From positions 2,272,001-2,336,000 of the forward strand of contig CAXXWQ010000003.1 in assembly GCA_963674945.2 (NCBI GenBank): DNA of 64,000 nucleotides, read 5' to 3'. The stretch comes from an uncultured Desulfosarcina sp. Its GTDB lineage: Bacteria > Desulfobacterota > Desulfobacteria > Desulfobacterales > Desulfosarcinaceae. The notes beneath the pieces are model-generated. The model had not been told where the DNA came from, ran no database searches, and saw only the letters and a program-made list of their open reading frames with translations. Position numbers and translations under genes: made by a program. This document shows, in pieces, positions 35,405 to 55,388 of this stretch. Position 1 is the stretch's first letter. Each line of letters starts with the position of its first letter.

Positions 35405-36014
35405 TCATGTCCAGATCCCGGATCCCATTCGGAACAAGCTTGAATCAGGAGATCGAATCGATCTCGAGTTGGGTTGCGGAAACCGCAAACGCCATTTCCA
35501 TGCCATCGGCATCGATCGACTGCCCTACGAAGGGGTCGATATTGTGGGCGATATCGAATCGGTTATCGAACAATTTCCCATCGGCCGCGTCGACCATGTT
35601 TACGCGTATCATTGTTTTGAACACTTGCCGAATCTTGAAAGAATCATGGATCGTTTGGCGCGGATCATGAAATTATCCGGCAAACTGTTTGTCGAGGTAC
35701 CGCATTTTTCGAATCCTTATTACTACTCAGATTCGACCCATCGGCAGCCCTTTGGATTGTATACCTTTTCCTATATAACCCGCGAAGCGCTATTTCAACG
35801 ACGTTGCCCGACATATCAGCGCCGGATCGATTTCGAGTTGAAAAACGTCAAGCTGGTCTTTAAATCGCCCCCCCCTTTTTACGGACGCTATGGCATGAAG
35901 AAAATCGTCCAGTCCATTGTCAACCTGAGCCGGTACATGCAGGAATTCTACGAGGAAAATGTATGCTGGATGGTGCCCTGTTATGAAATCCACTACGAAC
36001 TGGAACGGTGCTGA
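35397..36014 (+). CDS. Class I SAM-dependent methyltransferase
   Basis: LELGCG, HCFEHL, VPHFSN...DSTH. GTG start after GGAGG. Confidence 0.85.
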   Translation: MVDHVQIPDPIRNKLESGDRIDLELGCGNRKRHFHAIGIDRLPYEGVDIVGDIESVIEQFPIGRVDHVYAYHCFEHLPNLERIMDRLARIMKLSGKLFVEVPHFSNPYYYSDSTHRQPFGLYTFSYITREALFQRRCPTYQRRIDFELKNVKLVFKSPPPFYGRYGMKKIVQSIVNLSRYMQEFYEENVCWMVPCYEIHYELERC

Positions 36015-37078
36015 TGCGGATACTGCTCCTTAGCCGCTACACGCGATTGGGTGCCAGCAGCCGCATGCGCTGTTTTCAGTACATTCCCCTGCTGTCCCGG
36101 TGCGGTATCCATGTCGATATTCAGTCTTTGTTCGATGACAGATACCTGGTCGATCTGTATGGCACCAACCGTCGCCATTGGCGAAATATCGTCGCCAACT
36201 ATCTTCGGCGCGTACCGGCACTTCTTACCCTTGGCCGGTATGATCTCTTATGGATCGAGCAGGAGCTGTTTCCGTGGTTGCCGCCGCTGGCAGAACGGCT
36301 GCTGTACGGATGCAAGGTGCCCTGTATCGTCGACTATGACGACGCCATTTTTCATCGGTACGACCTGCATCGGAAGCAATTGGTTCGGCAAGTTCTGGGT
36401 CGAAAGATCGATTTCATCATGAATCGTGCCGAAGCGGTGGTCGTGGGCAACCGATACCTTGCCGAGAGGGCTATCAACGCCGGCGCCAATCGGGTTGCCA
36501 TGATTCCCACGGTCATCGATTTGGAACGCTACGTGCCGAAACCCGATTATGAACGCATACAGGTGACCATTGGCTGGATCGGCAGCCCCGCGACCTATCC
36601 ATTTTTCGAATCCATTGCACCGATACTGACAGATCTAATGAAACGGCTTCCCATTCGGGTCGAAGTCGTGGGCGGGCCGGAAATAGGCGAACGAGGGATG
36701 TGGCCCTTTACCTATCATCGGTGGTGTGAAGCGTCGGAAGTCGATCGTCTGAACCACTTTGACATCGGGATCATGCCGTTGCCCGATACACCCTGGACGC
36801 GGGGAAAATGCGGCTACAAATTAATCCAATATATGGCTTGCGGCATCCCCGTCGTCGCATCCCGTGTGGGCACGAACCTGGATATTGTGGAGCCGGAAAA
36901 AAGTGGATTTTTGGTATCGACCGCGAAGGAGTGGATTGATGCCATCGAACGCCTCGTTACAGACGCTGCGCTGAGAAGAACCATGGGACGACAGGGGCGC
37001 CGGCTTGTGGAAGCGCACTACCATCTGGGTAAAACGTTGCCGGTTCTGGTCCGGTGTATGGTTCAATCACAAAGGTAA
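36008..37078 (+). CDS. Glycosyltransferase family 4
   Basis: GASSRMR, DYDDA, DIGIMPL...KCGYKLIQYMACG. Confidence 0.9.
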   Translation: MLMRILLLSRYTRLGASSRMRCFQYIPLLSRCGIHVDIQSLFDDRYLVDLYGTNRRHWRNIVANYLRRVPALLTLGRYDLLWIEQELFPWLPPLAERLLYGCKVPCIVDYDDAIFHRYDLHRKQLVRQVLGRKIDFIMNRAEAVVVGNRYLAERAINAGANRVAMIPTVIDLERYVPKPDYERIQVTIGWIGSPATYPFFESIAPILTDLMKRLPIRVEVVGGPEIGERGMWPFTYHRWCEASEVDRLNHFDIGIMPLPDTPWTRGKCGYKLIQYMACGIPVVASRVGTNLDIVEPEKSGFLVSTAKEWIDAIERLVTDAALRRTMGRQGRRLVEAHYHLGKTLPVLVRCMVQSQR

Positions 37079-37113: not shown

Positions 37114-37710
37114 TTAGATGTCGTTGTTTTCGACCGCTTTTAGGAATGCATCAATATTTGAGCTCAGCAAAAGTGGAATCGCCTTGTCGATTCGATTTGC
37201 ATCCCAATCCCACCATTTTATTTCCAAGAGTCTTTCGATGACCCGATCACCGAATCGTTTTCCGATTTCGTGGGCCGGATTTCCGGCGACAATGGCATAG
37301 GGCTGCACCGTTTTGGTAACCAACGCCCGGGCACCAACCACGGCACCATCACCAATCTTGACGCCTGACAGAATCATGGCCTCTTTGCCGATCCACACAT
37401 CGTTACCAATGACGACGCTCCCTTTGGTACGGGGATGTCCAACGATATGGGATGCAGATTTCCGCAGCACACTAAAAGGATAGGTAGTGACCCAATCAAT
37501 GTTGTGCTCCCCGCCAAGATATATTTGAACGCCATCAGCGATCGAACAATAGGCACCAATGGATAGGGTTGAACCTTCATTCCAGGAATGAATTTTTAGC
37601 CCACTGGCATAGGTTCCTCGACCGAATCGATAACCCGGATATCGTCGATCCAATTGAAACGATCTTCGCAAGAGATAGGCACGCGCGATCTTTTTGAGCA
37701 GTTCGACCAT
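37114..37710 (-). CDS. CatB/Vat-like hexapeptide O-acetyltransferase
   Basis: TTYPF, IGNDVWIG, VAGNPA, IKWWDW. Context points to glycan acetylation. Confidence 0.88.
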   Translation of the reverse strand: MVELLKKIARAYLLRRSFQLDRRYPGYRFGRGTYASGLKIHSWNEGSTLSIGAYCSIADGVQIYLGGEHNIDWVTTYPFSVLRKSASHIVGHPRTKGSVVIGNDVWIGKEAMILSGVKIGDGAVVGARALVTKTVQPYAIVAGNPAHEIGKRFGDRVIERLLEIKWWDWDANRIDKAIPLLLSSNIDAFLKAVENNDI

Positions 37711-37724
37711 TATTGTTGGCCTTC

Positions 37725-40700
37725 CTAATCGGCGATCATCATCAATCGATTGTACAATCCTTCAATATCCTCAACGAGACGGGCAATGGAGTAGTTCTCG
37801 ACAACATAGCGTTTGGCTTTGTCAAAACGTTTCCGGTCATTCAGATAACCACTTTCAATCATATACATCAGTGCATTGCAGAAGGTTACGGCGTCATCTT
37901 TCGGGCACATGATGCCCCTTTTGCAGATGCGGAAAGCAGACCGGACAGGTTGATCCGGTTGGTGAACTCCCAATAGATCCTTGATTCCGCCGACATCCGT
38001 CGTAACCACCGGAACACTCGCTGCCATGGCTTCGATGATGGAAACCGGTGTGCCTTCATTTAAGGAAGTCAATGCGAGGATATCGAGGTCCGCATAAATC
38101 ATGGGGATATTCTTTTCCCACCCGTAAAAAATAACGTGGTCGGCCAAATCGTTTTCGATCGCATATTTTTCCAGCGATTGTCGAAGTTCACCGTCTCCAA
38201 TGATAAGAAAGTGGATTTTTCTGTCTTTGGTTTTTTTCAGTAATAAACTTGCCGAATCAAGGAACATTTTGTGGTTCTTGATTGGAACGAGCCGGCCCAC
38301 GATTCCGATGAGGATGGTATCGTCTGAAACCCCTATTCTTTTCCTGAGAATATATTTACGTTCGTAACATTGCAAAAATGGCTGCAAATCGAAACCGAGT
38401 TTTATCGTAACGATTTTCTCCGGTCGACTGATTCTGTATAGATTCAACAGCTCCCATTTTTGTGACTCACTGATGGCAATGATCCGATCCGTATATTTAC
38501 CCAACATTCGTTCAATCAGATTGAACAGATAAGTTGAGAATATATTGAAATAACTATCCAGGATATGGCCATGGAATGTATGTATGCTTATGATTTTTTC
38601 CTTTTTTCCGAAATTACATAAGATAACTGCTATACGGGCAATCGTTCCTGCCTTGGAAGTATGCGAGTGGACAATATCGGGTTTGAAAGATCGAATTGTT
38701 TTTATCACTTTTTTGAGCGAGATCAATTCCTTTAACGGTTCGATCTCTCTTTGAAGTTCCGGGATATGAATCAGCGTATCCTCGTTTACGTTGACGATGT
38801 AGCTCATATCGCCTTCATGTGAGGATATGGAACCGGTAATTAATTTTGTATCGAATTTACTCTTGTCCAAACATTCTGTAAGATTTTTTACATGAATTGC
38901 CGGGCCACCGATATTCATTCTTGAAACAAGCCGTAGAACCTTTATCTGTCTACCTGCTGATTTTCCAATATGCGGTCTTGCTTGGCGATCCTTGACTATC
39001 GGCTTCCTTGTGATTTCCTGATATAATTGAAGTGTACGTTCAACCATAGTATCATTGGAAAACAGATCTTTGACCCTCTTGTAACCGGACTCACCGTAAG
39101 ATTTTCTCTTGCCTGGATTATCAATGAGAAATTGAATTGCATTGGACAGGGATTCATCATCGGCGGGTCTTATCACGATTCCCGTTTTCTGATCGAGGTT
39201 GACGAAACTGGTACCTGTCCCCAACTTCGTGCTGATGACTGGTTTTTTACAACACATGGCTTCGAGTTGGACGATGCCAAATGCCTCGCTTCGAAGATGG
39301 GATGGCAAAACAAAAATATCGCATGCCTGATAGTAGGCGTTGACATCGTCATCCGGTAATTCACCCAAAAAATGGATTTTTTCACCAAGATGGTTTCTGT
39401 CAACAAATCGTCGCAGCTTTGATTCTTCCGGCCCCGCACCAATTAACAAGAGAACGGCATTAATCCTTCGCATCGCCGACAACAGATAGTGCAATCCCTT
39501 ATAATAACGAAAACACCCAACAAACAGAACTATCGGATGCGTTCCGTACCGGCGTTTAATCTCGTTAATTTGAAAGCGATCTTCGTATGACCTGAATCTT
39601 TCGATATCGATCCCAAGCGGAATCACAGTGCATTTATCTTTATACTTATTTAAAACAGCTGAAGATTCAATGTAGTTGGGTGAAGTGGAAATGATCCTGT
39701 CGGCTTTATCAAGAAAAACTTTTCTGAAAGGTGAATAGATTTTTCCCAACTTATCCTGTCTGATGATGTCGCTGTGATATGTGACGACAAGTTTTTTATG
39801 GAGATTGGTTAAGAAATACGAAAATTCTGCAGTCGGGTTTGGATAATGGAAGTGAATAATGTCGGCGCTCTCTCCAAATCGTTTCAGATAACGATAGAAG
39901 GTCGGCGTCAAGGGTGCAGAAGAAAATCTTCCAAGCTGTGGCGCCTTATGAATATTTATGCCGTTGTACGTCTCCTTTTCATACCTATTGATGGTGTTGG
40001 AAACGAGAACTTCGACATCTATTCCGCGACGCATCAGTCCAGTGGACAACAAGTTGATATGACTTTCGATTCCTCCTTTCACGGGAGGATAAAAATCCTT
40101 GTAGACATGTAGAACTTTCATCTTGGAGATGTTTCGCGAAACTCTCGTTTTGTCAGTAGAAATTTTTGTTTTGACGATATGTTTGGAATCGGCTTCCGTA
40201 GCCCGCTCAACGACCAATCGCAAGAAACTGAACAAAACAGAAATCAGGAACCGGAGCATCAGTGCAACGCCGGCAAAGGGAGATAACAGGGAATAGGGCC
40301 ATGTTGCATATTTTTCGAAAAGACGATAACCGCTTTTGTGAAAATGAAATTTAGAGAAGATGGGCTTGGTGCTGCTGCTCATTCCAACAATATGGGTTGC
40401 CTTGGCAAAGGGAAAGTAGACAACCTTCCAGCCTTTATTTCTCACCCTTCGGCACAAATCGGTATCTTCCCAGTAGAGAAAAAAATGTTCATCGAATCCA
40501 TTAATATTTTCAATGGCATTGCGTCGGATGACCATACACGCACCCGAAACCCAGTCCACTTCCCTTGGACTTTCATTATCATCCGCCCACGTCAATATAT
40601 TCGATTTGGTGATGGAGTTGTTGGGAAATATTCTTGTCAGAGGAGATTTGCGACCGAACAAAGATGTAAGAGGTGTTGGAAAAGACCGCGCCGATCCTTG

Positions 40701-41075
40701 GACGCTGCCATCTTCATCCATGATCTTTGGCCCGATAATTCCAATGCTCTCATTTTTTTCCATGAAACCGATGGCGATTTCGAAAAAATTCTTGGAAATA
40801 AAACAATCCGGATTGATGAGTGTTACGTATTTCGAGTCGCAATATCGAAGTGCCCTATTGATCGCGGCACCAAAGCCGATGTTCTTTTTGTACGTAAACA
40901 GTTTGATTTCCGGGAAACGAGCTTTGGCTCGGGTTACGTCGTCCGTTGATGCATTGTCGACGACGATGATGTTGAGACGGTGATCACGGCTTATATTTCC
41001 AAGGAGGCATTCGATAGAACGAATGAGGCAGTCCGTACTATTGAAATTTACATAGATGATATCCGATAATATCAC
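37725..41075 (-). CDS. Tri-domain glycosyltransferase (GT2 + GT4 + GT4)
   Basis: GT2 (VDNASTD, DWVSGACM, EDTDLC), GT4 (EAFGIVQLEAM) and GT4 (EGTPVSIIEAMA) in one 1116-aa ORF. Confidence 0.9.
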   Translation of the reverse strand: MILSDIIYVNFNSTDCLIRSIECLLGNISRDHRLNIIVVDNASTDDVTRAKARFPEIKLFTYKKNIGFGAAINRALRYCDSKYVTLINPDCFISKNFFEIAIGFMEKNESIGIIGPKIMDEDGSVQGSARSFPTPLTSLFGRKSPLTRIFPNNSITKSNILTWADDNESPREVDWVSGACMVIRRNAIENINGFDEHFFLYWEDTDLCRRVRNKGWKVVYFPFAKATHIVGMSSSTKPIFSKFHFHKSGYRLFEKYATWPYSLLSPFAGVALMLRFLISVLFSFLRLVVERATEADSKHIVKTKISTDKTRVSRNISKMKVLHVYKDFYPPVKGGIESHINLLSTGLMRRGIDVEVLVSNTINRYEKETYNGINIHKAPQLGRFSSAPLTPTFYRYLKRFGESADIIHFHYPNPTAEFSYFLTNLHKKLVVTYHSDIIRQDKLGKIYSPFRKVFLDKADRIISTSPNYIESSAVLNKYKDKCTVIPLGIDIERFRSYEDRFQINEIKRRYGTHPIVLFVGCFRYYKGLHYLLSAMRRINAVLLLIGAGPEESKLRRFVDRNHLGEKIHFLGELPDDDVNAYYQACDIFVLPSHLRSEAFGIVQLEAMCCKKPVISTKLGTGTSFVNLDQKTGIVIRPADDESLSNAIQFLIDNPGKRKSYGESGYKRVKDLFSNDTMVERTLQLYQEITRKPIVKDRQARPHIGKSAGRQIKVLRLVSRMNIGGPAIHVKNLTECLDKSKFDTKLITGSISSHEGDMSYIVNVNEDTLIHIPELQREIEPLKELISLKKVIKTIRSFKPDIVHSHTSKAGTIARIAVILCNFGKKEKIISIHTFHGHILDSYFNIFSTYLFNLIERMLGKYTDRIIAISESQKWELLNLYRISRPEKIVTIKLGFDLQPFLQCYERKYILRKRIGVSDDTILIGIVGRLVPIKNHKMFLDSASLLLKKTKDRKIHFLIIGDGELRQSLEKYAIENDLADHVIFYGWEKNIPMIYADLDILALTSLNEGTPVSIIEAMAASVPVVTTDVGGIKDLLGVHQPDQPVRSAFRICKRGIMCPKDDAVTFCNALMYMIESGYLNDRKRFDKAKRYVVENYSIARLVEDIEGLYNRLMMIAD

Positions 41076-42040
41076 GTATCACTTCCTTTTTTATTGGGCA
41101 CGAGATTTTTGTCCAATGCATCCCAGATTGTTTTTGCCCCGACACTGCGATTTCTTTGTATATTTGTTCGTTTCTTCATCACCTCCGGTAATCCCCGTAT
41201 GGCATCCATCTTGGACCGGAGAATCACGCCACCCTGTCCCCTGTTCAAAAAATAGAAGATTGTAACGATATTCAAAATCAGATGTATTGGCAGAAGGAGC
41301 CATAACAAGCTGCCAGGCATGTTCTTGAAAAATGTCCAAACCAGATTGCGGTGGCCATAATAAACGGTAAAATCACTATGTCTGCCACCGGTTGTTGCCG
41401 AACCGGCATGATAAACAACCGCGTCCGGAACATATTTTGCCGAATAACCCATAAGGCGGAGCCGAAAGCCCAAATCGATATCCTCGGAATAACAGAAATA
41501 CATCTCATCGAAACCGCCTATGGAACGAATTGCATCGCGTCGATACATGGCGGCAGCGGCACATGGTGAAAAAATCTCACGTTCTTCGATATCACCGGGG
41601 GTCTGATGCTGGCCATGCCGATGGCGCCACACGAGGCCGGTCAGATGGTAGCAATCTCCGATTCCATCGATTGTATTTTTGTTGTCATAAGACAACTGCC
41701 TGGAGCCAAAGGCTGCTGTGGTGGGATATTTCTCGGCGGCCCGCAGCATATTTTCAATCCAATGGGGTTCTGCGAATGCATCGGGATTGATAAGGGCAAC
41801 GAATGTCGAATCGCATTTGGAAAGTGCATGGTTGTTGGCGCCGGCAAATCCAATATTGGTTTTCAATTTTAAAATGGAAATTCGGTCCGATGCGATGCCG
41901 ATTTCCAAAGAATGATCAGAACTGTTGTTATCGACGACAATAATTCTTTCAGGTAAACGGGTTTGCATCAATAAATGTTGAATGCATTTATGCAGCAGAT
42001 CTCCACTATTCCAATTAACAATGATAATGTTGATGGACAT
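41072..42040 (-). CDS. Glycosyltransferase family 2
   Basis: VDNNSSD, INPDA, GGFDE...EDIDL. Confidence 0.9.
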   Translation of the reverse strand: MSINIIIVNWNSGDLLHKCIQHLLMQTRLPERIIVVDNNSSDHSLEIGIASDRISILKLKTNIGFAGANNHALSKCDSTFVALINPDAFAEPHWIENMLRAAEKYPTTAAFGSRQLSYDNKNTIDGIGDCYHLTGLVWRHRHGQHQTPGDIEEREIFSPCAAAAMYRRDAIRSIGGFDEMYFCYSEDIDLGFRLRLMGYSAKYVPDAVVYHAGSATTGGRHSDFTVYYGHRNLVWTFFKNMPGSLLWLLLPIHLILNIVTIFYFLNRGQGGVILRSKMDAIRGLPEVMKKRTNIQRNRSVGAKTIWDALDKNLVPNKKGSDT

Positions 42041-42063: not shown

Positions 42064-43488
42064 TTATCGCCGAATCGCTGAGCTGTTAATTTTTCCTTTT
42101 ACCATATTGTAAAGTATTCCAAGTGATAAAAATGATATCCATGCAATTGGATGCAAATATCGAATGCTTGTCAACTGAGAAAACATCGCGATAATCATCA
42201 GTTGAGCAAGATGCAGAAAAAAGATGAAATATATGAAAAAATTTTGGGGACGCATAATAATTACTCCCAAAAAAAGAATTATGGGAAAAACTAGAAGAAA
42301 CTGGTACCATAGTATCGCTTTTTGAAAGTAAGCTCCGGTAATCGAGGATTTGTTGGGGTAAGGATCCAAAGACAGACAATATGCCTCTGAGATTTTGTTC
42401 AATGTCTTTTCGTTGAGAGGTATGTTTAAACCACGATGTCTCACTGCCGCTTTGTTGAGCGACGAATTTTTTAAATAATCCAAATAAGTAGCTGCGCCGA
42501 TTTTAATTATTCCAACAGGATCGTGGAGTAACAGATATTTTGCAGCTCTCATGGAAAATTGGTTGGCTTCATCCCTGTTTTCAAATTTTTTAATCAACGA
42601 CTTAATTAAACATCCGGGCAACCAGCGTTGTGAATTGCGAGCTTGTATATTACCTATCTCGCATTTTGAGTTGTTGATTATTTCTCTTAAATCAGGACCA
42701 AAAGGGATCGTGTTCGTTTCTAACAAGGGCGCCCAAGCAGATAGTAAGGCAAAACCTGTTGCGGAATAATTTGGAAGTTTGCCATATCTGGTTTGGATTG
42801 TCTTGGCAGTGGAAAATAGAAAAGGAATTGTAAAAAATACAACAAACCAAAAGGAAAATATTTTGAGCAAACGATGTAGCCTATTCGCTTGAATTTGACT
42901 ATTTTTGTGTGTTCGAATTATTGTTGCTGTTACGTGAATTGATGCCAAGAATAATCCGAGCAAATATATTGGAATGAACACCATCCTTAGTTTAATCATT
43001 AAAAAACCACTGATAATCGATAAAACCAGATGGCTCAGCTTAACCGTAGAAACATAATGAAGTAAAAAATATACAAAAAGCACAAAAAACAAAAGTGAGA
43101 AGGTTTCAGTCATGACATTGCGTTCGTAAAAAAGCTGTATCGGTTCAATTGAACAAAGAACTGCAATGAATCCGTATTCCCAAAAATTCAATTCAAAATA
43201 CCTTTTTAGAATAGCCGATAACACGATGCAGGTGCTTGCACTTGCTAAAACCTGGAGAAATAGAAGGGGTATGAGAGAATGGCCAAAAAAAGTAACGGCA
43301 GCTATGAGTATCCCATAGAAATACGAACGATCTGGAGGCGCCGATCCAGTGAGAGCCGTATGAATGTAGCTCAAAGAGTCTCCTTGAAACAACATCACGT
43401 TCGGGTCAATTATGAAAAAGAAAAACTTTATGGAAAAAATAAAAAAAACAAGTATTCCCCAATATTTATTGTCGTTACACGGAAGCAA
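42064..43488 (-). CDS. Multi-pass membrane protein, putative GT-C (GtrC/ArnT-like) glycosyltransferase
   Basis: Many TMs; acidic first-loop motif GDSLSY followed by DRSYFY; MTET; a large periplasmic loop; RYLHP near the C-terminus. Confidence 0.6.
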   Translation of the reverse strand: MLPCNDNKYWGILVFFIFSIKFFFFIIDPNVMLFQGDSLSYIHTALTGSAPPDRSYFYGILIAAVTFFGHSLIPLLFLQVLASASTCIVLSAILKRYFELNFWEYGFIAVLCSIEPIQLFYERNVMTETFSLLFFVLFVYFLLHYVSTVKLSHLVLSIISGFLMIKLRMVFIPIYLLGLFLASIHVTATIIRTHKNSQIQANRLHRLLKIFSFWFVVFFTIPFLFSTAKTIQTRYGKLPNYSATGFALLSAWAPLLETNTIPFGPDLREIINNSKCEIGNIQARNSQRWLPGCLIKSLIKKFENRDEANQFSMRAAKYLLLHDPVGIIKIGAATYLDYLKNSSLNKAAVRHRGLNIPLNEKTLNKISEAYCLSLDPYPNKSSITGAYFQKAILWYQFLLVFPIILFLGVIIMRPQNFFIYFIFFLHLAQLMIIAMFSQLTSIRYLHPIAWISFLSLGILYNMVKGKINSSAIRR

Positions 43489-43512
43489 TCGCAGATCCTA
43501 TAATTTGGATGT

Positions 43513-43926
43513 TTATTGTTTCTCGGAGAAATTAAAGATATTTCTAAAAACAAAAAACCTTGCCATAGTAGTAATGCTGAGGATAATAAAAAGAGATAAA
43601 ATATAATATACGCCGAGGACTCGAAACATAAGGAGAAAACCGAGATAGTCAATCAACCGGAAGAGACCGTTCGTTAATAAAAACCTGACATATTCTTTTA
43701 ATAGCGGGCCGCTGCTCCGAAAAACGAAACAGCGGACGTTGAAAAAATTTACATGGAAAACGACGATAAAAACCAAAGCAACCGCAATTTCTTCTTTAAC
43801 GTGCAGTCCATCAACGAAGATAATAGGCAGCCCCATAGATAACAATGCACTGATACCGCTCGTGAAAACAAAACGAGTGGCAGAATTCTTTTTTATTGCT
43901 TTGAATAGTCCGGTGGCAAAGTGCAT
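43513..43926 (-). CDS. GtrA-family small flippase
   Basis: 137 aa, 4 TMs; RFVFTSG...NFFNVRCFVFR...RFFVFR pattern. Confidence 0.75.
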   Translation of the reverse strand: MHFATGLFKAIKKNSATRFVFTSGISALLSMGLPIIFVDGLHVKEEIAVALVFIVVFHVNFFNVRCFVFRSSGPLLKEYVRFLLTNGLFRLIDYLGFLLMFRVLGVYYILSLFIILSITTMARFFVFRNIFNFSEKQ

Positions 43927-43993
43927 GTATCATCTATGAAACATCATATAAAAACAGATATTCATCCTGCTTTTATCCATGTCTGTAACACTT

Positions 43994-45040
43994 TTATTTT
44001 CCACGAAGCCAGGTTGTTGTCAGTACATAAAAAAAACGAAAAGCGTAAAGAAGTTCATGCCCTTTTTTACTCTTGCCACTGATGCGCCGTCTAAAGACAA
44101 TCGGTCTTTCGTCGATCTTTAATTTTTTCTTTGCTGATAATATCAGAAACTCTGAGGTATGATATTGATCCTGAAAAAGGCGCAGGCTTTTCAATGATTC
44201 AGTTCTGATGGCTCTGTATCCACTGGAACAATCCGTTATTTTCGTGCCCATCAGCAGGTTTATCAATCGACTGAACAAGATGACACCAAGATGGCGCCAC
44301 CAGTGAGTGATTTCATGTTTTCCTAAAATTCTTGAGCCAATGATGACATCTGCCTCATTTTCTATCACTGGTTGTACTAGGTCCGGTACAACTTCGGGGT
44401 CGTTTTGGCCATCAGCGTCAATGGTTACGACAACAGCAGATTCAGTGATAACTGCAATATCAAAGCCAGTGCGCAAGGCAGCACCGCCACCCCGGTTAAC
44501 AGGCACCTTGGCCAGCAGACATCCGGCCGCCTTTACAACCAATGACGTATTATCGGTGCTTCCATCATCAACAACAAGAACATTTATTGGAACTCCATTG
44601 GCATCTTTGGGAAATCTACGCAAAACCTTTTTTAAGTTATATTCTTCATTAAGTGCAGGGATAATGCAAAGTATCGTATTCTTTAAATTGGACGTGTTGT
44701 GTTCTAAAAACTCACTGACGACCGAATTTCTGATGTATCGGTCAAACTGACGATTTAATTTTGTTATTCTGTTAAAGAGAATTATGATAAGAACCCAGAA
44801 AATGATGAAACCGATCATCAAGAGAGCTATAAGTCTGCTACCAGTGAATTTACCTATGGCGAGAATGTCGCTTAATATTTGCGCAATGTTTGGAAAAATG
44901 GCGACAAGTCCAATGATAAAGCCTGTAAAGAGAATACTCAGAGGAAAAAGGGATTCTTCACGCTCTATTCTGAGCGAGCGGCCGCCGACGATAAAAAAAG
45001 CAAGCGAAACAAAAATACCAACAAATTGTAGTTGAGACAT
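43994..45040 (-). CDS. DUF2304-like membrane domain fused to a DPM1/GtrB-type polyprenyl-phosphate glycosyltransferase (GT2)
   Basis: Three N-terminal TMs; IPALNEE, VDDGSTD, NRGGGAA, IDADGQ, IGSR, TDCSSGYRA. Confidence 0.85.
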   Translation of the reverse strand: MSQLQFVGIFVSLAFFIVGGRSLRIEREESLFPLSILFTGFIIGLVAIFPNIAQILSDILAIGKFTGSRLIALLMIGFIIFWVLIIILFNRITKLNRQFDRYIRNSVVSEFLEHNTSNLKNTILCIIPALNEEYNLKKVLRRFPKDANGVPINVLVVDDGSTDNTSLVVKAAGCLLAKVPVNRGGGAALRTGFDIAVITESAVVVTIDADGQNDPEVVPDLVQPVIENEADVIIGSRILGKHEITHWWRHLGVILFSRLINLLMGTKITDCSSGYRAIRTESLKSLRLFQDQYHTSEFLILSAKKKLKIDERPIVFRRRISGKSKKGHELLYAFRFFYVLTTTWLRGK

Positions 45041-45081
45041 AATGTCAATCCTAAGAAAACAATCGATTGTTATATATAATA

Positions 45082-46858
45082 CCTGAATTTTGCACCAACA
45101 ATTTAACCAAGTCTGGATACCACCTGGGAACCCTTGCTACAATGGGGGTTACGACACCAACCCATAAAAGCAGGAGGTACCCAGATGGTAAAATCCAAGA
45201 AATCAAATTTCCGGAAAAACCGCAACCCTAAAGGATTTAGAAAAAACGGCGCCAAGGCCAAGAAAATCAACGCTTCAACCGCTTACGATACCTGTAGCGA
45301 GCAATTGAGCCCATTTGGCGGGCTTTTACCGCTGATCAAATTTTTGGACTTGGTCGAATTTCAGAAATTATTTGACTTCGCATATAAACCGCCCACGCGT
45401 AAACCTAAGCTGGGCCACTATTCAATGGTGGTCGGCTTGCTGATGCTACTGTTTATAGGGTTTAACCGAATCTGGCACTTTTCCTATCTGCGCCTGGACG
45501 CCATGCTGTGCGGATTTTTCAAACTCACGCGTCTGCCGGTGGCCAGCACCTTCTGGCGCTATGTCGATAGCCTGGGCATCAACCAGGCCCATGCGCTGCT
45601 GCATTTGATGGCCCTGTTGCGCAATCGGGTCTGGCAGCTTTGCGATATCTCCTATTACCGCATCTGCCTGGATATCGATACTACGGTGGAGACCGTGTTT
45701 GGCAATCAACAAGGTGCGCTAAAGGGTCACAACCCACGCAATCGGGGTAAAAAAGGATACCGGCCGGTGTTATGTTTCATCGAACAAAGCCGCGAGTATT
45801 TGCTGGGCAAGCTTCGCAGGGGCGAAACCATCAGCGGCAAACAAACCGCAGCGTTCATCGCTAAAATAAAAAGATACCTTCCCGATTGCGTTAACCAGGT
45901 GTTGATTCGCGCAGATGCGGAATTTCAAAGCTGGCATAGCATTCATGAATGTCTCAAGGCTGGTTACAATTTTATCATCGCCAACAAGAAATGTGAGCCG
46001 CCATTTGATCCCAACGGGTGGTACCGGCCGCATCGGCGAAAACCCTATGAATTCAACAGCTGTATCTACCAGCCGACGGGGTGGCTGCAGCCCGTTCGGT
46101 TTGTGGCCATGCGAATCCCCAAGCAAGATAAGGTTGTCAAAGACCAATACGTGCAGTGTGAACTGTTTGAAGTCGACCGTTATGAATACCGCATCTTTTG
46201 TACCAATCTTGGCCGTAAGGCCCATAAGGTCATCGCCGAGTATGACAAACGAGCCGATGTTGAAAACCTCGTGGGGGAGGCCAAACGCGAAGGCCTGGAT
46301 GCGATTCCGTCATCGCGCTTTAAAAACAACTATGCTTATTTTCAAATCGTCATGCTGGCCTACAATATCTGGCGCTATTTGAAGATGATCGCCGAGTTGA
46401 GTGCTAAAACTGAACCGCCGGTAGAAAAAAGCGAGCAGCGCCATGGCTTCTCAGGTATTGAAACCAATACGGTGCGCATAGCGCGGCTGCGCCTGTTGAT
46501 CATTGCAGCCAAAGTAGTAATGTCATCAAATAAAGACAAAGTTCGTTACTCGATCCAGGACAGCCGAACGCCAGCATTGATGTCTTTTCTAAAATACCTG
46601 GATAAAAAAAGATCGCAGCCCAAACCATGGGCCGGTAGCATACTCCAGACTGCTATCGGTTAGCCATGCAGTTGATGCAAAAAATTTCTTGCATAAAAAT
46701 ATCATGATTGATCTTAAATACATACTGTATAAGTTGCCAAGGCGTTTTACTGCAACATGTTCTCAGCGCCACCATTGACTGTAGCCTCGGAAATTGGGAG
46801 CGAATCTAAAAAAATCGCGGACATTGGCCGCTATGGCCGTATGCGTGCAAAATTCAGG
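45082..46858 (+). mobile_element. Intact IS1380-family insertion sequence (1777 bp)
   Basis: Perfect 14-bp TIRs CCTGAATTTTGCAC (45082-45095) / GTGCAAAATTCAGG (46845-46858); 5-bp target duplication TAATA at 45077-45081 and 46859-46863; one DDE transposase ORF. Confidence 0.93.
45185..46663 (+). CDS. IS1380-family DDE transposase
   Basis: LSPFGGL, LDIDTT, GYRP, IRADAEF, YDKRADVENLVGEAK; GGAGG RBS before ATG 45185. Confidence 0.9.
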   Translation: MVKSKKSNFRKNRNPKGFRKNGAKAKKINASTAYDTCSEQLSPFGGLLPLIKFLDLVEFQKLFDFAYKPPTRKPKLGHYSMVVGLLMLLFIGFNRIWHFSYLRLDAMLCGFFKLTRLPVASTFWRYVDSLGINQAHALLHLMALLRNRVWQLCDISYYRICLDIDTTVETVFGNQQGALKGHNPRNRGKKGYRPVLCFIEQSREYLLGKLRRGETISGKQTAAFIAKIKRYLPDCVNQVLIRADAEFQSWHSIHECLKAGYNFIIANKKCEPPFDPNGWYRPHRRKPYEFNSCIYQPTGWLQPVRFVAMRIPKQDKVVKDQYVQCELFEVDRYEYRIFCTNLGRKAHKVIAEYDKRADVENLVGEAKREGLDAIPSSRFKNNYAYFQIVMLAYNIWRYLKMIAELSAKTEPPVEKSEQRHGFSGIETNTVRIARLRLLIIAAKVVMSSNKDKVRYSIQDSRTPALMSFLKYLDKKRSQPKPWAGSILQTAIG

Positions 46859-46911
46859 TAATAACTATAGGTTATATAAGAGCCTTCTTGGATATATTAA
46901 TTCGTTTGCCC

Positions 46912-48120
46912 TCAATTCACTGGAGATGCTGATCCAATGAAATCAACGGACATGTCAGACCTCCAGGTAGATGTGCATATTACTTTTTTGAGATCGCAGC
47001 GTTCTTTATATTTTTTTGCAATATCCATTACTTCAGTCAATAATCCGTCATCAAGGGTGATAGGGTTCAAACCCAGATTAAGAAAACTATCCTTGTTAAA
47101 CCGAAGTTCATTTTCTGCATCTTCATTCCTTGGGTTTTTATAATATCGAATTTTGGCACCCGTGATCTTGGCGATTTTCGATGATAGTTCTTTGATATTA
47201 TGGCATTCGGTTGTTTGATTAAATATTTTTACGCGCTGGCTTTTTTCCGGAGGATTTTCTACGGCAAGCTTTATACAATTAACAGTATCTTTTATGTGAA
47301 TAAAGGCTCTGGTTTGTCCTCCTGTTCCATGAATCGTTAACGGATGGCCGACAGCGGCTTGCATGAGAAAGCGGTTAAGGACAGTCCCATAATCACCATC
47401 ATAGTCAAAACGGTTGATTAATCTTTCGTCAAGCAAGGTTTCCGAGGTGTTTGTACCCCAGACAATTCCCTGATGGAGGTCCGTAATGCGAACTTGGTCG
47501 TTTTTGTTGTAGTAATAGAAAAAAAGCGCATCCTGGGTTTTGGTCATATGGTAAATGCTTCCTGGGTTCGCGGGATACATTATTTCGAGCTCAGTTTCCT
47601 TGCCATCCACATCAACCTTAACCCTGAGGTATCCTTCGGGTATTTCCATCCCGGCGGTTCCATATCCATAAACCCCGGTTGTGCCAAGATGAATCATGTG
47701 AATATCCAGTCCAGATTCGACAATGGCACAAAGAATATTGTGGGTCGCACTTAAATTGTTATTGACGGTGTATCTCTTATGATAGGCGGATTTCATGGAG
47801 TAAGGCGCAGCGCGCTGTTCTGCGAAATGAATCACCGCCATTGGCTTTATTTCTTTGAATAAGGTTAAAATTCGATGATAATGTTCCGACACATCAATGA
47901 ATTTAAAATGTATTTTTTTTCCGGTTATTTCTTCCCAGCACTGAAGGCGTTTGCTGATCGGCTGAATTGGGGTCAATGAACTGCATTCAAGCTCAATATC
48001 AATCTTACGCCTTACGAGATTATCGACAATCGTCACATCATATCCATTCTTGGATAGATACAGGGCCGTCGGCCAACCACAAAATCCGTCACCACCAAAG
48101 ACAATCACGCTTTTTTTCAT
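46912..48120 (-). CDS. sqdB: UDP-sulfoquinovose synthase
   Basis: GGDGFCGWPTAL, HFAEQRAAPYSM, PGSIYHMTK, DLHQGIVWG and RFDYDGDYGTVLNRF are SqdB/SQD1 signatures. Confidence 0.93.
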   Translation of the reverse strand: MKKSVIVFGGDGFCGWPTALYLSKNGYDVTIVDNLVRRKIDIELECSSLTPIQPISKRLQCWEEITGKKIHFKFIDVSEHYHRILTLFKEIKPMAVIHFAEQRAAPYSMKSAYHKRYTVNNNLSATHNILCAIVESGLDIHMIHLGTTGVYGYGTAGMEIPEGYLRVKVDVDGKETELEIMYPANPGSIYHMTKTQDALFFYYYNKNDQVRITDLHQGIVWGTNTSETLLDERLINRFDYDGDYGTVLNRFLMQAAVGHPLTIHGTGGQTRAFIHIKDTVNCIKLAVENPPEKSQRVKIFNQTTECHNIKELSSKIAKITGAKIRYYKNPRNEDAENELRFNKDSFLNLGLNPITLDDGLLTEVMDIAKKYKERCDLKKVICTSTWRSDMSVDFIGSASPVN

Positions 48121-48230: not shown

Positions 48231-49121
48231 CTAACCTGCGGAAAGGCGTACACACCGATTCCTAAATTCTTTCAATTCTTTTTCTAAATCATCAAACACG
48301 CGTAACCTATGAAGAAATTTTTTTCTTGCATAGTCATACAATTTTAAATCAAGTCTATTTCTTTCCGAAAGGAGTGCAAAAATTTTATTTCCAACATCGT
48401 TTTTCATTTTTTCAATGCGGATCTCCAAGGGTTCTGTATTGGTCTGGCCGATGTTTTGTTTTACATAGGAAAGATCCATAAAAGGGAAATATTCGCGTAA
48501 CGTTTTCTCGAAGAGAATCATGCTTTCATCAAAAAACTCGACGAATCCGAATAGCGCCGTGCCATCTATATAAGCCTTGGATCGGGACAGGTTCTTTTCA
48601 TCCATCTCTCTTCGCCAGTCAACTGATGGCGATTGGCTTTTAAAAACGTGGAAATTGCGGATTGATGGCGGAACATCATGCTTCATCCGCCATTCCACAT
48701 ATTCACAAAGGGAGTGATCCCGTGCAAAACGGGCGCCCAGCGTGTCAGATTCGGTCTGCCGTCTTTCAAATCGATAGACCGAGCGTACCCGCTCGAGGGG
48801 GTGCCGAAACATCATGATCGTATAAAAGCCGACATCGTCTATCGTTGGTAACGGGAGTCGAAGATGATGGGAAGACAGCGCTGCGATTTCTGGGTTCTCT
48901 GTCAGGTAAGGCCCCAAATAGTCAGCACCTCGCATCATCTTTTCATCGTCGCGGTGATCGATGAACTTTTCTTGGAAATTTTTCGCCAGTGCCCAGTCGA
49001 TGGTCGTTCCCGCATTCTTGAACAGGTGATTGTGGATGATTACCTTTCTATTATCACTTCGCGGCAAAGACGTGGAGCTACCCATGGTCTTAAGCTTTTG
49101 TATCAATGATCGCCAGCCCAT
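48231..49121 (-). CDS. Sulfotransferase family protein
   Basis: 5'-PSB-like HNHLFKNAGTT and 3'-PB-like FRHPLERVRSVY motifs; N-x-LD-x-x-LY near the C-terminus. Confidence 0.8.
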   Translation of the reverse strand: MGWRSLIQKLKTMGSSTSLPRSDNRKVIIHNHLFKNAGTTIDWALAKNFQEKFIDHRDDEKMMRGADYLGPYLTENPEIAALSSHHLRLPLPTIDDVGFYTIMMFRHPLERVRSVYRFERRQTESDTLGARFARDHSLCEYVEWRMKHDVPPSIRNFHVFKSQSPSVDWRREMDEKNLSRSKAYIDGTALFGFVEFFDESMILFEKTLREYFPFMDLSYVKQNIGQTNTEPLEIRIEKMKNDVGNKIFALLSERNRLDLKLYDYARKKFLHRLRVFDDLEKELKEFRNRCVRLSAG

Positions 49122-50011
49122 TATATCGCATCCTCGTTTGCATCGTATATGCGATAATAGGTCTCTACGATTTCGAGGCCGCCGAACCTTTTGTTTTTGC
49201 CGGTTTCGGTACCTTCTTTATCAATCTTGACGACTTCCACCCCGCACCAACTGTCCGCCACAGGGGGATCCAGGCCGAGTTCATGGACCACCCACGGGTT
49301 TACCGGGGGGCAAAATTGTCCCAGCGGTTCGAAGTCATCGGAAGAATGGTTCCGGTCATTTGGTATCCTGGCCCAATGCAGCAGATTTTTGGCTGTTTCT
49401 GATAATAGTTCGGCCACCGGGTGGTTAAAGGTAAAGAATAACCTTCGATCACTTTGATTTTTCGCGATATAATCTGCAATTTCGATATCGCAATCCGATT
49501 CCCGCATTCGCAACTCTGACAAAGAGGCTTCCGGAATCTTACCATATTGCTCGCGGTTGTATTCGATGTCCAAGTGGCGCCGCAAGGCCTCTGCCGGCTT
49601 GATTCCTTCTTTCCACCCTTCGAGAATGGTCTGATTGTGATAATCGCCCAAAGGCCCCCGTAAGGGGGATCGATTTGCATTCCTGATATAAGTCAGCTCC
49701 GGATTGTATCCCCTGAAGAAGATGTTGGGCCAGACGACGACCTTGTTGCCCCAGTTTGCTTTCAGTTCCTTGCTGCGAACGAAGGTGCATGGGTAGTTGT
49801 CCATTACTCGTTGTGCGAAAATCCAGTCGGCACTGAGAAAATGCTTTGCGTAGGTGTCTGTCTCCTCATTTTTCAATAAATGAACAATTCCTATGGCCGT
49901 AACCTTGACTCTTCCTGAGATAGCGGTCAGTTTCTGAGCAAGTGGACGCGCCTGGCAATTTCCGATGACCACCACATTGATTTTGTTTTTTTTCTTCCAG
50001 AAACGGAACAC
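49121..50011 (-). CDS. WcbI-family polysaccharide biosynthesis protein (putative acetyltransferase)
   Basis: IGNCQA, FFRGYNP, DYH, LFFTFNHP. Confidence 0.78.
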   Translation of the reverse strand: MFRFWKKKNKINVVVIGNCQARPLAQKLTAISGRVKVTAIGIVHLLKNEETDTYAKHFLSADWIFAQRVMDNYPCTFVRSKELKANWGNKVVVWPNIFFRGYNPELTYIRNANRSPLRGPLGDYHNQTILEGWKEGIKPAEALRRHLDIEYNREQYGKIPEASLSELRMRESDCDIEIADYIAKNQSDRRLFFTFNHPVAELLSETAKNLLHWARIPNDRNHSSDDFEPLGQFCPPVNPWVVHELGLDPPVADSWCGVEVVKIDKEGTETGKNKRFGGLEIVETYYRIYDANEDAI

Positions 50012-50028
50012 TCTCGAATTTCCCGTCC

Positions 50029-53000
50029 TTATCCAAGCAGTTCATTGGTCAATTGATATAGTTTCTCATTGACCGCTTCAATGGAAATTTCCCGTTGGCA
50101 AAACTGAATGCCCGCAGATGAAAGGGATTGCCAACGCTCCTGGTTACCATAGAGGTCCTGAATCAAAGACGCCATATCGTCGGCATCCTTTGCCACGAGA
50201 ATGTTCTCATCATGGCAAAGTCCCGTTCCTTCAACGGCGATCTCCGTGGCAACGCAAGGGATGCCATAGCTTAAGCTTGTAACGACCTTCCCTTTCATGC
50301 CTGCCCCGTAGCGCAGTGGCGCCACAGAAAGCCGACACGCCCCGAAGAGTTCTGACAAATCCGGCACATATCCCCGGATGATGACGTTATCCTCAGATAG
50401 CGCTTCAATCTCGCTTGGCATATCGCTTCCCGCGACAATGAATTTGCCTGAAAATCCCTGTCGGCGGAGAATGGGCCATACATCGGAGATGAAGTAGACA
50501 ACGGCGTCGATATTGGGCGGATGACTGAATCCACCGATGAATACGATGTCTTTCAATTCATCCCACGGTCTTCTCGTGGGCTCCGGAAGATCGCGGGCCA
50601 CGGGTATATGGTATGTCCTGGCATGTGGCAAAATGTCGTTGATTACCTGAATTTCATAGTAACTGCGGCACATTGTTGCATCGGCCTTTTTTATCACATC
50701 GAGTTCATCTTCCCGCGTTTTCGCAGCCTTCTCATCCATTCGTGGAGAAAGGCACAAAGCTGCCTGCCGAGACTCCCGAAGAAAGTGAAGATCCACGGTA
50801 TCGAATACGATTTTTGCCTTACCGGCATGCTTTTTTACGATATCGATTAACGGGGCTGCCACCTGCACGCGACATAAGATAATCAAATCGGCCTTCGGAC
50901 CATATTGGCGTATGGCTTCTTGTGTGGATTCAATCCAGGGGAGGTGGACACACTCAACTCCCAGTCGCTGCAAATCCGTTGTATAGCCCTCGAAGGCAGT
51001 GACGTCCAATGTTACAAACGTAATATGGAATCCGAGATTTTTAAAAATCTTCATGTAATTGACGGCATCGATGGAACCCGAATCTTTATTCGGCCTGGGT
51101 GTCGTCGCGTCGATGAACAGGATTCGTCCCTTGATTCCACGAAGATAGGGAAGTGTGGGGGGGTTGCAAGAGCCATGGGATGACAGCTCCTGTCTCCATT
51201 TTTCTAAGAATTGATACCGATTCACCACTTGATATCGTTTTACGCCTTCGTTCTCCCGGGTACCACAGGTAGTACCCTCGAAGTGAACCAGCTGTGATTT
51301 GGGCTGATAGACAACACGCCGATGGGCCGCACGCACCTGAAAAGAGAGATCGGTATCTTCGTAGTAGGCCGGAGAATATCTTTCGTCAAACCCACCTATC
51401 AATTTCCACAGCGCAGCGGGAATTGCAATGGATGCACCCGAACAATAGTCTACATCGCGAGCATGATCGTACATGGGCTCAAACGGATCTTCAAAACGTC
51501 CGAAGTTCCACCCGCTGCCGTCTTCAAAAACGATTCCACCGGCTTCCTGGAGTCGGCCTTCCGGATAGATCAACTTCGATCCCACTAGGCCGATCTCGGG
51601 ATCATTTTCCAATGTCCGTATGAGTTCTGTTAACCACCCACTCAGTACGATGGTGTCATTATTTAAAAACACCAAGTAGTTCCCTTTAGCTATCGTGGCG
51701 GCCTCGTTGCAATTTCTCAAAAATCCCAAATTCTTCTTATTTCGCCGATAGATGACATTGGCAAACGGTTCGGTAAAGACATCTTGTGTTGCATCTGTCG
51801 ACCGATCGTCCGATACGATGATTTCATAATCGATTCCATCTTGACCATCCAGATAAATGGAGTGGATGCAGGCAAGCGTGTATCGGATTTGATTGTATAC
51901 GGGAATGATGATGGAGATATTTGGTTCTTGGGTTTGTTTAATCGTCTGTGCAACTTTTTTTAGGCCATTTTTCCAGCAGACGATTTCATTTTGGCGGGGT
52001 AACGGTGGTCGCTTTGAATGGGAAAATCGTGGCAAATCGTAAAGATCAATCAAAGAAATGGCCGGATCATGAATTGTACCAAATGGTTGGTTGGGGTCGC
52101 GAAAATGAACCTCCTCACATCGATTGGCAAACAATGCCAAATTTCCTTTACTCATCAACAAAAAGTCGAGCGTACGACGAATTCTTCCCGGATTGATCAA
52201 CCCGAGTGCCTGATTTGGATTCATCAGGAACAGGCGGAAAATACGAAGCAGGAGTTCAACGTCGCTTTTTTGAATTCGTCTGCCATGGTAGCGATGTTCA
52301 GGAGGAACCAGAAGGCAATCGATACGTTTGAGTTCTGCGTGAATACCGGACTGCCCCAATCCCAGAAAGCGTGTCAATTTTGCTATGACTCTCACGATAC
52401 GGGAATGGGATATCGCATTCAATCGTGTTTTATATTCGTTATGCTCCGATGTGATGCCGTTGAACTTTTTCCAAAGCTCTTCATGGTGTCCTTCCAATTG
52501 ATGCAACTCATCTTGAAGTCTGCCGCGCTCCCCTCGCAGCCGCTGGGTCTCTTTGGTAAGACGGTTGTTTTCCTTAAAGAGGTCGTCATTTCTTCTTGCC
52601 AGTTCTTGGGCTTCTTTTTCAATCCGACGATTTTCCTCCTCAAGCGTTTTGCTCTTTGACTCAAGGTCCGCCAATCTGCGCATTGAAGTTGAGAACCGTT
52701 CCACCTTGGGTATTTTTATTACCCATTTGCCGTTTTTTTGTAACTGCCGCATTTGTTGCGCGAGGACCTTCATCCGGGATGCATCGTTTGGGACCGGTTG
52801 CCCTGCACAGAGTGCATCAAATAGTGAAGTGACCGGCCCGTCGGTCTGCAAAGCCCTGTCCTCGGCGTCATGGTGACAAAGTTTCGGATCTACGAATGCC
52901 TCGATCTCATTTCGGCTTGGCGATTGCAAACCGTTGACACCGTTGTCGGTCAACCAACGGTGGACATCTTTGGTCGTTTCGTAGGGTCTTTTGAGAATCG

Positions 53001-53526
53001 ATTCATATCGAACGGAAAGATAGTGAATACCTACCAAATGGACGCATAAAGCGCGCATGTAATATTCCCATAATGCAAGGCCGTACTTCATCGGGATGCC
53101 GTTGCGCTCCTCCAGCGATTTTGCAGCCGAAAACGGAGATCGCAGCACAAGGATAAAAACGGCTTTTTCCAAATGGTGACACCAGAAAGGCAGCGTAAGA
53201 CATAAACGAGGATCTTTTATGAACCAGGGACGGTGAGAATCCAATCGGAAAATGATATCTCTGATTTCGGTATCGATCAGACTCCGATCGGCTTCGGATA
53301 TTTTTTGAATATCGAGGTCGTAAACTTCCCACCAATTCCCGCCGGCAACGTCTAAAATGAGATCGTTTGCCGCCATCACGTCCTTTCGCTCCCAGAACCC
53401 CTTCGGATTATCGGGAGCCGTTACCATGGAGGCTTCTTCACTTCCATAATAGCAGCCCATTAGATTCACAATTCTGGCCAGAGCGGATGTGCCGGAACGG
53501 TGCATACCCAACACGATGATCTGCAT
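50029..53526 (-). CDS. Multidomain protein: sulfotransferase-like + coiled coil + GT2 + GT4
   Basis: LGMHRSGTS, GFWE, KDPRL; heptad coiled coil (~aa 280-370); GT2 (IPVYNQ, DDRSTD, LNNDT, EDTDL); GT4 (APLRYGAGMKGK). Confidence 0.87.
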   Translation of the reverse strand: MQIIVLGMHRSGTSALARIVNLMGCYYGSEEASMVTAPDNPKGFWERKDVMAANDLILDVAGGNWWEVYDLDIQKISEADRSLIDTEIRDIIFRLDSHRPWFIKDPRLCLTLPFWCHHLEKAVFILVLRSPFSAAKSLEERNGIPMKYGLALWEYYMRALCVHLVGIHYLSVRYESILKRPYETTKDVHRWLTDNGVNGLQSPSRNEIEAFVDPKLCHHDAEDRALQTDGPVTSLFDALCAGQPVPNDASRMKVLAQQMRQLQKNGKWVIKIPKVERFSTSMRRLADLESKSKTLEEENRRIEKEAQELARRNDDLFKENNRLTKETQRLRGERGRLQDELHQLEGHHEELWKKFNGITSEHNEYKTRLNAISHSRIVRVIAKLTRFLGLGQSGIHAELKRIDCLLVPPEHRYHGRRIQKSDVELLLRIFRLFLMNPNQALGLINPGRIRRTLDFLLMSKGNLALFANRCEEVHFRDPNQPFGTIHDPAISLIDLYDLPRFSHSKRPPLPRQNEIVCWKNGLKKVAQTIKQTQEPNISIIIPVYNQIRYTLACIHSIYLDGQDGIDYEIIVSDDRSTDATQDVFTEPFANVIYRRNKKNLGFLRNCNEAATIAKGNYLVFLNNDTIVLSGWLTELIRTLENDPEIGLVGSKLIYPEGRLQEAGGIVFEDGSGWNFGRFEDPFEPMYDHARDVDYCSGASIAIPAALWKLIGGFDERYSPAYYEDTDLSFQVRAAHRRVVYQPKSQLVHFEGTTCGTRENEGVKRYQVVNRYQFLEKWRQELSSHGSCNPPTLPYLRGIKGRILFIDATTPRPNKDSGSIDAVNYMKIFKNLGFHITFVTLDVTAFEGYTTDLQRLGVECVHLPWIESTQEAIRQYGPKADLIILCRVQVAAPLIDIVKKHAGKAKIVFDTVDLHFLRESRQAALCLSPRMDEKAAKTREDELDVIKKADATMCRSYYEIQVINDILPHARTYHIPVARDLPEPTRRPWDELKDIVFIGGFSHPPNIDAVVYFISDVWPILRRQGFSGKFIVAGSDMPSEIEALSEDNVIIRGYVPDLSELFGACRLSVAPLRYGAGMKGKVVTSLSYGIPCVATEIAVEGTGLCHDENILVAKDADDMASLIQDLYGNQERWQSLSSAGIQFCQREISIEAVNEKLYQLTNELLG

Positions 53527-53633
53527 CTATACGCTATCCTCCTGATAATGCATCGAAGGTATTGAGATTTTCCAAGACCGTTGCTGTTTTTGGTGACAGG
53601 CGCATCCAGTGTCCTTTATCGGGAGGAAAAACA

Positions 53634-54596: not shown

Positions 54597-54642
54597 GAAG
54601 GGATTCTCATTGTGCGTCGGGCAGATATGCCAACCGTGTGGC

Positions 54643-55380: not shown

Positions 55381-55388
55381 AGTTCGGA

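Follow-up and report, generated by a model that had tools for sequence, protein, structure and literature searches.

The window analyzed here is a 64,000-nucleotide stretch from an uncultured Desulfosarcina sp. Between positions 42064 and 48120 it contains four genes that we propose form a three-component glycosylation module, carrying sulfoquinovose to an extracytoplasmic side branch of a surface glycan, a reading to which we give a probability of about 0.6. It is likely that the sulfo-sugar decorates the cell surface rather than only feeding the known sulfolipid. All four genes are on the minus strand. In order of transcription, they encode a predicted UDP-sulfoquinovose synthase with a short-chain dehydrogenase/reductase fold (sqdB, 46912-48120; 402 amino acids), a predicted polyprenyl-phosphate glycosyltransferase in which an N-terminal, GacJ/Rv3632-like DUF2304 domain is fused to a GT2 domain resembling dolichol-phosphate-mannose (DPM) synthase (43994-45040), a GtrA-family small membrane protein, the predicted flippase (43513-43926), and a 474-amino-acid membrane glycosyltransferase with a GT-C fold predicted from its model (42064-43488). 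An insertion sequence (IS) of the IS1380 family (45082-46858, plus strand, 1777 bp; transposase at 45134-46663) lies between sqdB and the GT2 gene. An earlier note on this DNA had described the same order, including the IS, and family matches and fold comparisons confirm it.

From the gene identities, the folds, the adjacency and the coupling of the GT2 clade to sqdB, which like the IS are direct observations, we infer a donor, a lipid intermediate and an acceptor. SqdB enzymes convert UDP-glucose and sulfite into UDP-sulfoquinovose, and by homology the protein of the window would do the same. The DUF2304-GT2 protein would then transfer the sugar to yield undecaprenyl-phosphate-sulfoquinovose, as its fold and genomic coupling suggest. 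By analogy with the GacIJKL and GmlABC systems, GtrA would flip the lipid-linked sugar across the membrane, and the GT-C protein would attach it in the periplasm, after export, most probably as a side branch on the Wzm/Wzt-exported glycan of the surrounding locus. Given the established stereochemistry of GT2 and GT-C enzymes, the two inversions would be expected to leave an alpha-linked sugar.

The SqdB shows full-length homology to SQD1 (1QRR; phmmer E value, 7.5e-96) and retains His98, Arg103, Thr147, Tyr190, and Lys194, all of which either act in catalysis in SQD1 or are required by Agl3. Its identity to the SqdBs that adjoin sqdX in cyanobacteria and Trueperaceae is 67-69%. Against the NCBIfam model NF041015 it scored 326 bits (cut-off, 575), and just one of the two matching control genomes was above the cut-off, indicating that this model is narrow. 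In two other sqdB loci (L058:8068-10185 and L051:8143-10194) the sqdB frame is extended upstream into further sequence, which we take to be phosphoadenosine/adenosine phosphosulfate (PAPS/APS)-reductase-like and which may be a local sulfite supply.

The three predicted parts of a Gtr/Gac/Gml-type system, a polyprenyl-phosphate-type GT2, a GtrA flippase, and a GT-C transferase, are all encoded downstream of sqdB. In the fusion protein the DUF2304 domain spans amino acids 4-103 (27.5 bits; cut-off, 25.5), its helices providing the membrane anchor, and the GT2 domain, with a DADGQN motif, spans amino acids 126-286. When a GT2 profile was compared with the sequences of solved structures, DPM synthase was the best match (1e-22), followed by ArnC and GtrB (1e-10 for GtrB). 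The GT2 model (predicted local distance difference test score [pLDDT], 88) aligned with DPM synthase 5MLZ with a Z score of 26.4 (root mean square deviation, 2.7; 222 residues aligned), ahead of GpgS, which uses a soluble acceptor (Z, 20.1), and ArnC (Z, 20.0); for both models, folds were compared by structural alignment against chosen representatives (VIA-align). The GT2 scores below the curated cut-offs for PpgS (84 versus 370 bits), AglJ (94.5 versus 325), ArnC (49.5 versus 529), and PgfS (33 versus 500). The GtrA protein has four hydrophobic segments and matches PF04138 with 34.2 bits (cut-off, 26.1). The 474-amino-acid membrane protein has a PMT_2 match below threshold (23.2 bits; cut-off, 26.1), and its model (pLDDT, 85) has a GT-C fold, the best matches being Pmt1-Pmt2 (Z, 21.0), Pmt4 (20.1), and ArnT (18.8) at 9-11% identity. 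Its top 20 fold matches are all GT-C-fold enzymes or glycosylphosphatidylinositol transamidase subunits (Z, 11 to 21), and the next has a Z score of 7.2. The protein carries an invariant Asp37-Ser38 after helix 1, Asp37 being the acidic residue in the first external loop that is typical of such transferases, and Glu122-Arg123/Glu128. Its family is unnamed and comprises more than 1000 clusters; the family profile gave no match among solved sequences. One homologue (P0014) is fused to GtrA, and the actinobacterial GT2 of the clade described below is fused to a GT-C domain that matches the profile of this GT-C family (E values down to 8e-16). In 80 sqdB loci a first version of this profile gave no match and a larger one gave matches.

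Further evidence comes from other genomes, where we searched the same samples with a profile of the 25 sequences closest to the GT2 and with the SqdB. Among 300 genomes of the window's class, sqdB was present in 16 of the 18 GT2 carriers versus 33 of the 282 others. Seven pairs lie within 6 kb, four of them with sqdB directly upstream at a gap of about 10-90 bp and in the order found here; in six genomes of one family the two genes are unlinked. In the phylum (400 genomes) the counts were 6/8 versus 32/392, with five of the six pairs on a shared contig, 9-22 kb apart; here 8-kb flanks had first suggested no linkage, which whole-genome searches overturned. Within three families that have both carriers and noncarriers, sqdB occurs in 5/5 carriers versus 12/90 noncarriers. 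The family of Prauserella, which we take to be Pseudonocardiaceae, was chosen on account of its five loci among the 80 sqdB loci, which makes it a replication and not a blind sample. In its 171 genomes, 76 have the GT2, 79 have sqdB, and 74 have both, so that sqdB is found in 74/76 carriers versus 5/95 others, and 70 pairs lie within 1516 bp (71/73 carriers and 68 close pairs when three unpublished genomes, G951, G976, and G1018, are excluded). On haloarchaeal plasmids, two of the three loci opened (out of four matches) have a sqdB homologue 2-6 kb from the GT2. The earlier note had proposed looking for colocated sqdB, GtrA, DPM1-like GT2, and GT-C genes across genomes, and linkage of sqdB to the GT2 was found in the class, the phylum, actinomycetes, and haloarchaea. 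As a control, we took 80 metagenome loci whose GT2s are of a generic DPM-like kind (544 kb; 30 of the loci were at least 8 kb long), and none contained sqdB. This background, collected with generic GT2 patterns, returned distant GT2s; of the 47 placed in the tree, 1 fell inside the clade, and its 3.7-kb contig lacks sqdB. The partner SqdBs differ: in actinomycetes 7 are near 68% and 63 near 43% identical to that of the window (the three inspected of the latter all retain the Arg), and in the window's class they are 33-39% identical. Partners from different SqdB subfamilies point to functional coupling rather than to one inherited block. All GT2s with known context fall in one clade in both a FastTree and an IQ-TREE phylogeny; the tree covered roughly half of the background loci and one sixth of P0041-P0134. 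A sequence signature is present in 82/82 proteins inside the clade and 0/53 outside, but as it was defined after viewing the tree it is descriptive and not a test. On balance, the clade probably represents an undescribed polyprenyl-phosphate-sulfoquinovose synthase family of sulfate reducers, actinomycetes, proteobacteria, and haloarchaea, which would place C-sulfonated sugars on surface glycans or proteins, explain many sqdB genes without sqdX, and be a second, nonphotosynthetic source of sulfoquinovose.

The earlier interpretation is supported in part. The architecture and the cross-genome linkage that it called for stand up well; the proposed link to the sulfite pool is not peculiar to sulfate reducers. 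The genome (7.08 Mb; 51% guanine plus cytosine [GC]) has a dsrA match above the cut-off, so the host is a sulfate reducer and a supply of sulfite is plausible. However, aerobic actinomycetes are where the module occurs most often, and as they make up most of the carriers found, sulfite supply is not what selects it.

Several observations weigh against the proposed module and clade. The SqdB of the window has Thr148 at a position that is Met in 78 of its 80 closest relatives, and in Agl3 the Met145Ala mutant, Ala being the only replacement tested in the passages of PMC4388408, is inactive. Among those 80 loci, 12 contain sqdX, and 8 have a clade GT2 within 9 kb and 72 do not. In the window's own family, 9 of 64 other genomes have a distant sqdB homologue in a glycan locus, and the stretches read there gave no match to the GT2 of the window, so sqdB does not need the module; five Parvularculaceae-type genomes with a close sqdB likewise had no clade GT2. 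Conversely, sqdB was not found in four GT2 carriers (G305, G259, G773, and G841; 90-97% complete) or in 2 of the 76 actinomycete carriers (G990 and G1043). The nearest relatives of the GT2 with known context (G561 and G539, 2 of 152 genomes; 49-50% identity) belong to triads of GT2, GtrA, and a membrane protein; in both genomes sqdB is on a different contig, and their family commonly has sqdB in any case. We saw no other locus in which the four genes are all present in the order found here. The sqdB partners in the window's class, the phylum, and haloarchaea have no equivalent of Arg101, and the class partners lie 3' of a dehydratase-like gene, with a sulfotransferase and a membrane protein of the LPG_synthase_TM family instead of GtrA. 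Repeatedly, the neighbor of sqdB is a member of an epimerase family whose proteins are 40-64% identical across phyla. Support for the GT2 clade is weak at its deep node (FastTree, 0.855; IQ-TREE SH-aLRT, 46), and because the genomes are kin, the counts overstate independence and we give no overall P value.

The Arg-less partners and the recurring epimerase suggest that, across the clade, several related C-sulfo sugars may serve as donors. We consider it rather unlikely that the same route carries such a sugar here, for example, 6-sulfofucose made by C4 epimerization or an amino-sugar analogue, or that a protein or lipid A serves as the acceptor. The epimerase gene beside sqdB in many loci would fit the former, as would the class partners that follow a PF02719 dehydratase-like gene and the 6-C-sulfofucose described in an archaeal glycan in the available passages of PMC11407970. 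However, this SqdB has Arg103 and resembles sqdX-linked SqdBs, there is no epimerase in the cassette, and the best match in the genome to the sqdB-associated epimerase family is 37% identical, which together favor sulfoquinovose itself for this window. As to the acceptor, the best fold matches of the GT-C model are protein O-mannosyltransferases followed by ArnT, and related loci encode membrane proteins with tetratricopeptide repeats, but fold matches at 9-11% identity do not tell the acceptor and the cassette is embedded in a glycan operon. The epimerase is itself a candidate UDP-sulfoquinovose 4-epimerase leading to 6-sulfofucose (L266:3547-4536, L189:7970-8956, L188:10067-11080, L186:752-1783, L054:12074-13144, L069:10179-11099, and L041:8011-8934). 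In the class, most sqdB homologues have no Arg101 equivalent and are almost always preceded by the PF02719 gene (L188-L196, L259, L264, L266, L267, L269, L270, and L272), and their product may not be UDP-sulfoquinovose. In two loci (L053:1577-6945 and L069:4516-7853) the glycosylation cluster that contains sqdB comes immediately after a type IV pilin gene and genes for large, glycosyltransferase-like membrane proteins, a context that hints at pilin glycosylation with a sulfo-sugar. Alternatively, UDP-sulfoquinovose might be used by a GT2 or GT4 that the glycan locus encodes and that acts in the cytoplasm, while the triad carries an ordinary sugar. This is unlikely, as it leaves unexplained both the coupling (74/76 and 16/18) and the adjacency of the GT2 to different SqdB subfamilies.

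The state of the cassette in this strain is a separate matter. The transposase matches NF033539 (197 bits; cut-off, 180), and the IS ends in perfect inverted repeats of 14 bp and is flanked by a 5-bp duplication of its target (45077-45081 and 46859-46863), all features of IS1380 members. Without the IS and one copy of the target, sqdB and the GT2 gene would be exactly 89 bp apart, as had been stated before. The assembly has one copy, both junctions are present in run X3, which is from another study, and an IS-free allele was not seen in four runs. The IS may lower the expression of the three downstream genes: it lies 36 bp 5' of the start of the GT2 gene in the orientation opposite to that of the operon, and on the operon strand it contains one terminator-like site. 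A promoter scan gave 12 sites where 6.8 ± 2.4 would be expected by chance, and the IS-GT2 junction had none. Together with the Met-to-Thr change in SqdB, the insertion makes the activity of the cassette in this strain uncertain, and the cassette was not found in the relatives searched. That it is a silent or decaying acquisition, with the triad cut off from its promoter and SqdB impaired, is nevertheless very unlikely in our view: all four frames are intact, Thr at the Met position is shared with 2 of the 80 close relatives and two haloarchaeal homologues, and promoter-like sites occur on the operon strand inside the IS, though at near-chance frequency. Moreover, this concerns the strain and not the module. 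It is still less probable, indeed highly improbable, that sqdB feeds sulfoquinovosyl diacylglycerol (SQDG) synthesis via a divergent GT4 elsewhere in the genome. The earlier note had recognized no sulfolipid genes, and this stands for SqdD, as the genome has no match to the GT8 family (PF01501), and for SqdX, as no orthologue was found; no search was aimed at SqdC. Compared with seven SqdX-like proteins, the best match in the genome is a PHP-GT4 fusion (C1:115528-118047) at 29-33% identity, far under the 47-49% that SqdX-like proteins of different phyla share with each other. In favor of an SQDG route, homologues of this fusion (44-51%) lie 2-4 kb from sqdB in two loci, L011 and L014, and the SqdBs of these loci rank among the nearest relatives of the SqdB of the window; here, though, the fusion is unlinked and sqdB is inside the glycan operon. 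An SQDG route could also coexist with the lipid-carrier module. The PHP-GT4 regions are G000:C1:115528-119983 and, in the two Desulfohalobiaceae loci, L011:501-2921 and L014:12416-14887; with its SqdX-like GT4 domain the fusion is possibly a divergent glycolipid or sulfolipid synthase.

The genes around the cassette are co-oriented with it. Downstream are a rhamnosyltransferase-like GT2 (41072-42040), a GT2-GT4-GT4 fusion (37725-41075), and an acetyltransferase (37114-37710), all candidates for backbone synthesis, and farther downstream, also on the minus strand, is a WecA/MraY-like initiating transferase with a coenzyme A-binding domain (28756-30582). The upstream block (48231-56273, minus strand) is a candidate for synthesis of the acceptor glycan and its ABC exporter, with genes for a weak sulfotransferase-like protein, a WcbI-like protein, a sulfotransferase/coiled-coil/GT2/GT4 fusion, a methyltransferase, Wzt, and Wzm. 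From wzm and wzt to the acetyltransferase, intergenic gaps do not exceed 110 bp except at the IS. By established knowledge of these families, the predicted products mark the run as an ABC-transporter-dependent surface-glycan locus. Outside the IS, contigs from run X1 equal the sequence with zero differences. The four genes had been described as AT-rich, and their GC content (0.36-0.41) is indeed lower than that of five housekeeping genes (0.54-0.56) and of the genome (0.51). However, the values for the glycosyltransferase and sulfotransferase-like genes on either side are low as well (0.43-0.45), indicating that low GC is a mark of the whole 37.7- to 49-kb block and not of the four genes alone. 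With two sulfotransferase-like domains in the operon (48231-49121 and 50029-53526), the glycan may also bear O-sulfate; sulfotransferase genes lie 3' of the GT2 in many related loci as well. A block with wzx, a methyltransferase, and a GT4 (33881-37078) has the opposite orientation and genome-average GC, which makes the locus look mosaic. At the other end, a helix-turn-helix regulator and DegT-family genes (56188-60411) form a conserved site (also in L193, L194, L195, and L196) where relatives carry differing glycan gene sets, several of which include a distant sqdB homologue.

Sulfoquinovose is usually treated as the product of phototroph sulfolipid synthesis. It reportedly occurs in the O-polysaccharide of Shewanella japonica, a report that our literature search did not find. 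That search, which left most subscription journals outside its coverage, found no polyprenyl-phosphate-sulfoquinovose pathway: the three-component scheme is known, and sulfoquinovose as its sugar is not, as far as the papers searched show. What the window contributes is a compact version of four genes, GtrA included, within the ABC-glycan locus of a sulfate reducer, together with the co-occurrence in its class. If our reading is correct, the lipid-carrier route would add a new polyprenyl-phosphate sugar, and acid-stable sulfonated envelopes would be predicted in cultured genera such as Prauserella, Saccharomonospora, and Rhodanobacter. It would also give a use to sqdB genes without sqdX, a gap noted in the available part of a preprint (bioRxiv 10.64898/2026.10.19.760023). 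It follows as a caution that sqdB should not be read as a sulfolipid marker.

By fold and family, each part of the module fits the Gtr/Gac scheme. DUF2304 is the GacJ/Rv3632 activator family, and DUF2304-GT2 fusions have been noted in deltaproteobacteria, according to passages of bioRxiv 10.1101/180810. As those passages describe for GacI/GacJ/GacK/GacL of Streptococcus pyogenes, a GT2 with a DUF2304 activator is predicted here to make a polyprenyl-monophosphate sugar, and a GT-C protein to attach that sugar to an ABC-exported glycan as a side chain. Unlike in that system, as far as it is described there, with its UDP-GlcNAc donor and Wzx-like flippase, the module has a GtrA-type flippase and a linked nucleotide-sugar gene, sqdB, its DUF2304 domain is N-terminal and fused, and the host is of the Gram-negative type. 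PpgS/Rv3632 of Mycobacterium tuberculosis also combines a GT2 with a DUF2304 partner to make a polyprenyl-phosphate sugar (10.1101/180810; NF058614), but its donor is UDP-GalNAc, and the GT2 of the window is far below the NF058614 cut-off. GtrABC and Klebsiella GmlABC resemble the module in being three genes beside a wzm-wzt locus that add a side sugar after export, and IS insertions in such modules change the O-serotype, an IS being present here too; in the passages of PMC7556023 and PMC11231755, however, they carry Glc or Gal. The GT2 also differs from GtrB in being closer to DPM synthase and in having no equivalent of the C-terminal helices of GtrB. That sulfoquinovose occurs in archaeal surface glycans is already known (PMC4388408 and PMC11407970): Agl3 of Sulfolobus acidocaldarius feeds UDP-sulfoquinovose into a surface glycan, as is predicted here, but that is an archaeal N-glycan with a beta linkage, and the passages of PMC4388408 describe no polyprenyl-monophosphate-sulfoquinovose route. 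Finally, the SqdB belongs to the same subfamily as those of SqdB-SqdX and SqdB-SqdD sulfolipid synthesis, as covered in part by PMC13436972. Unlike in those systems, neither an SqdX orthologue nor a GT8 gene was found in the genome, and we propose transfer via a lipid carrier to an extracytoplasmic acceptor.

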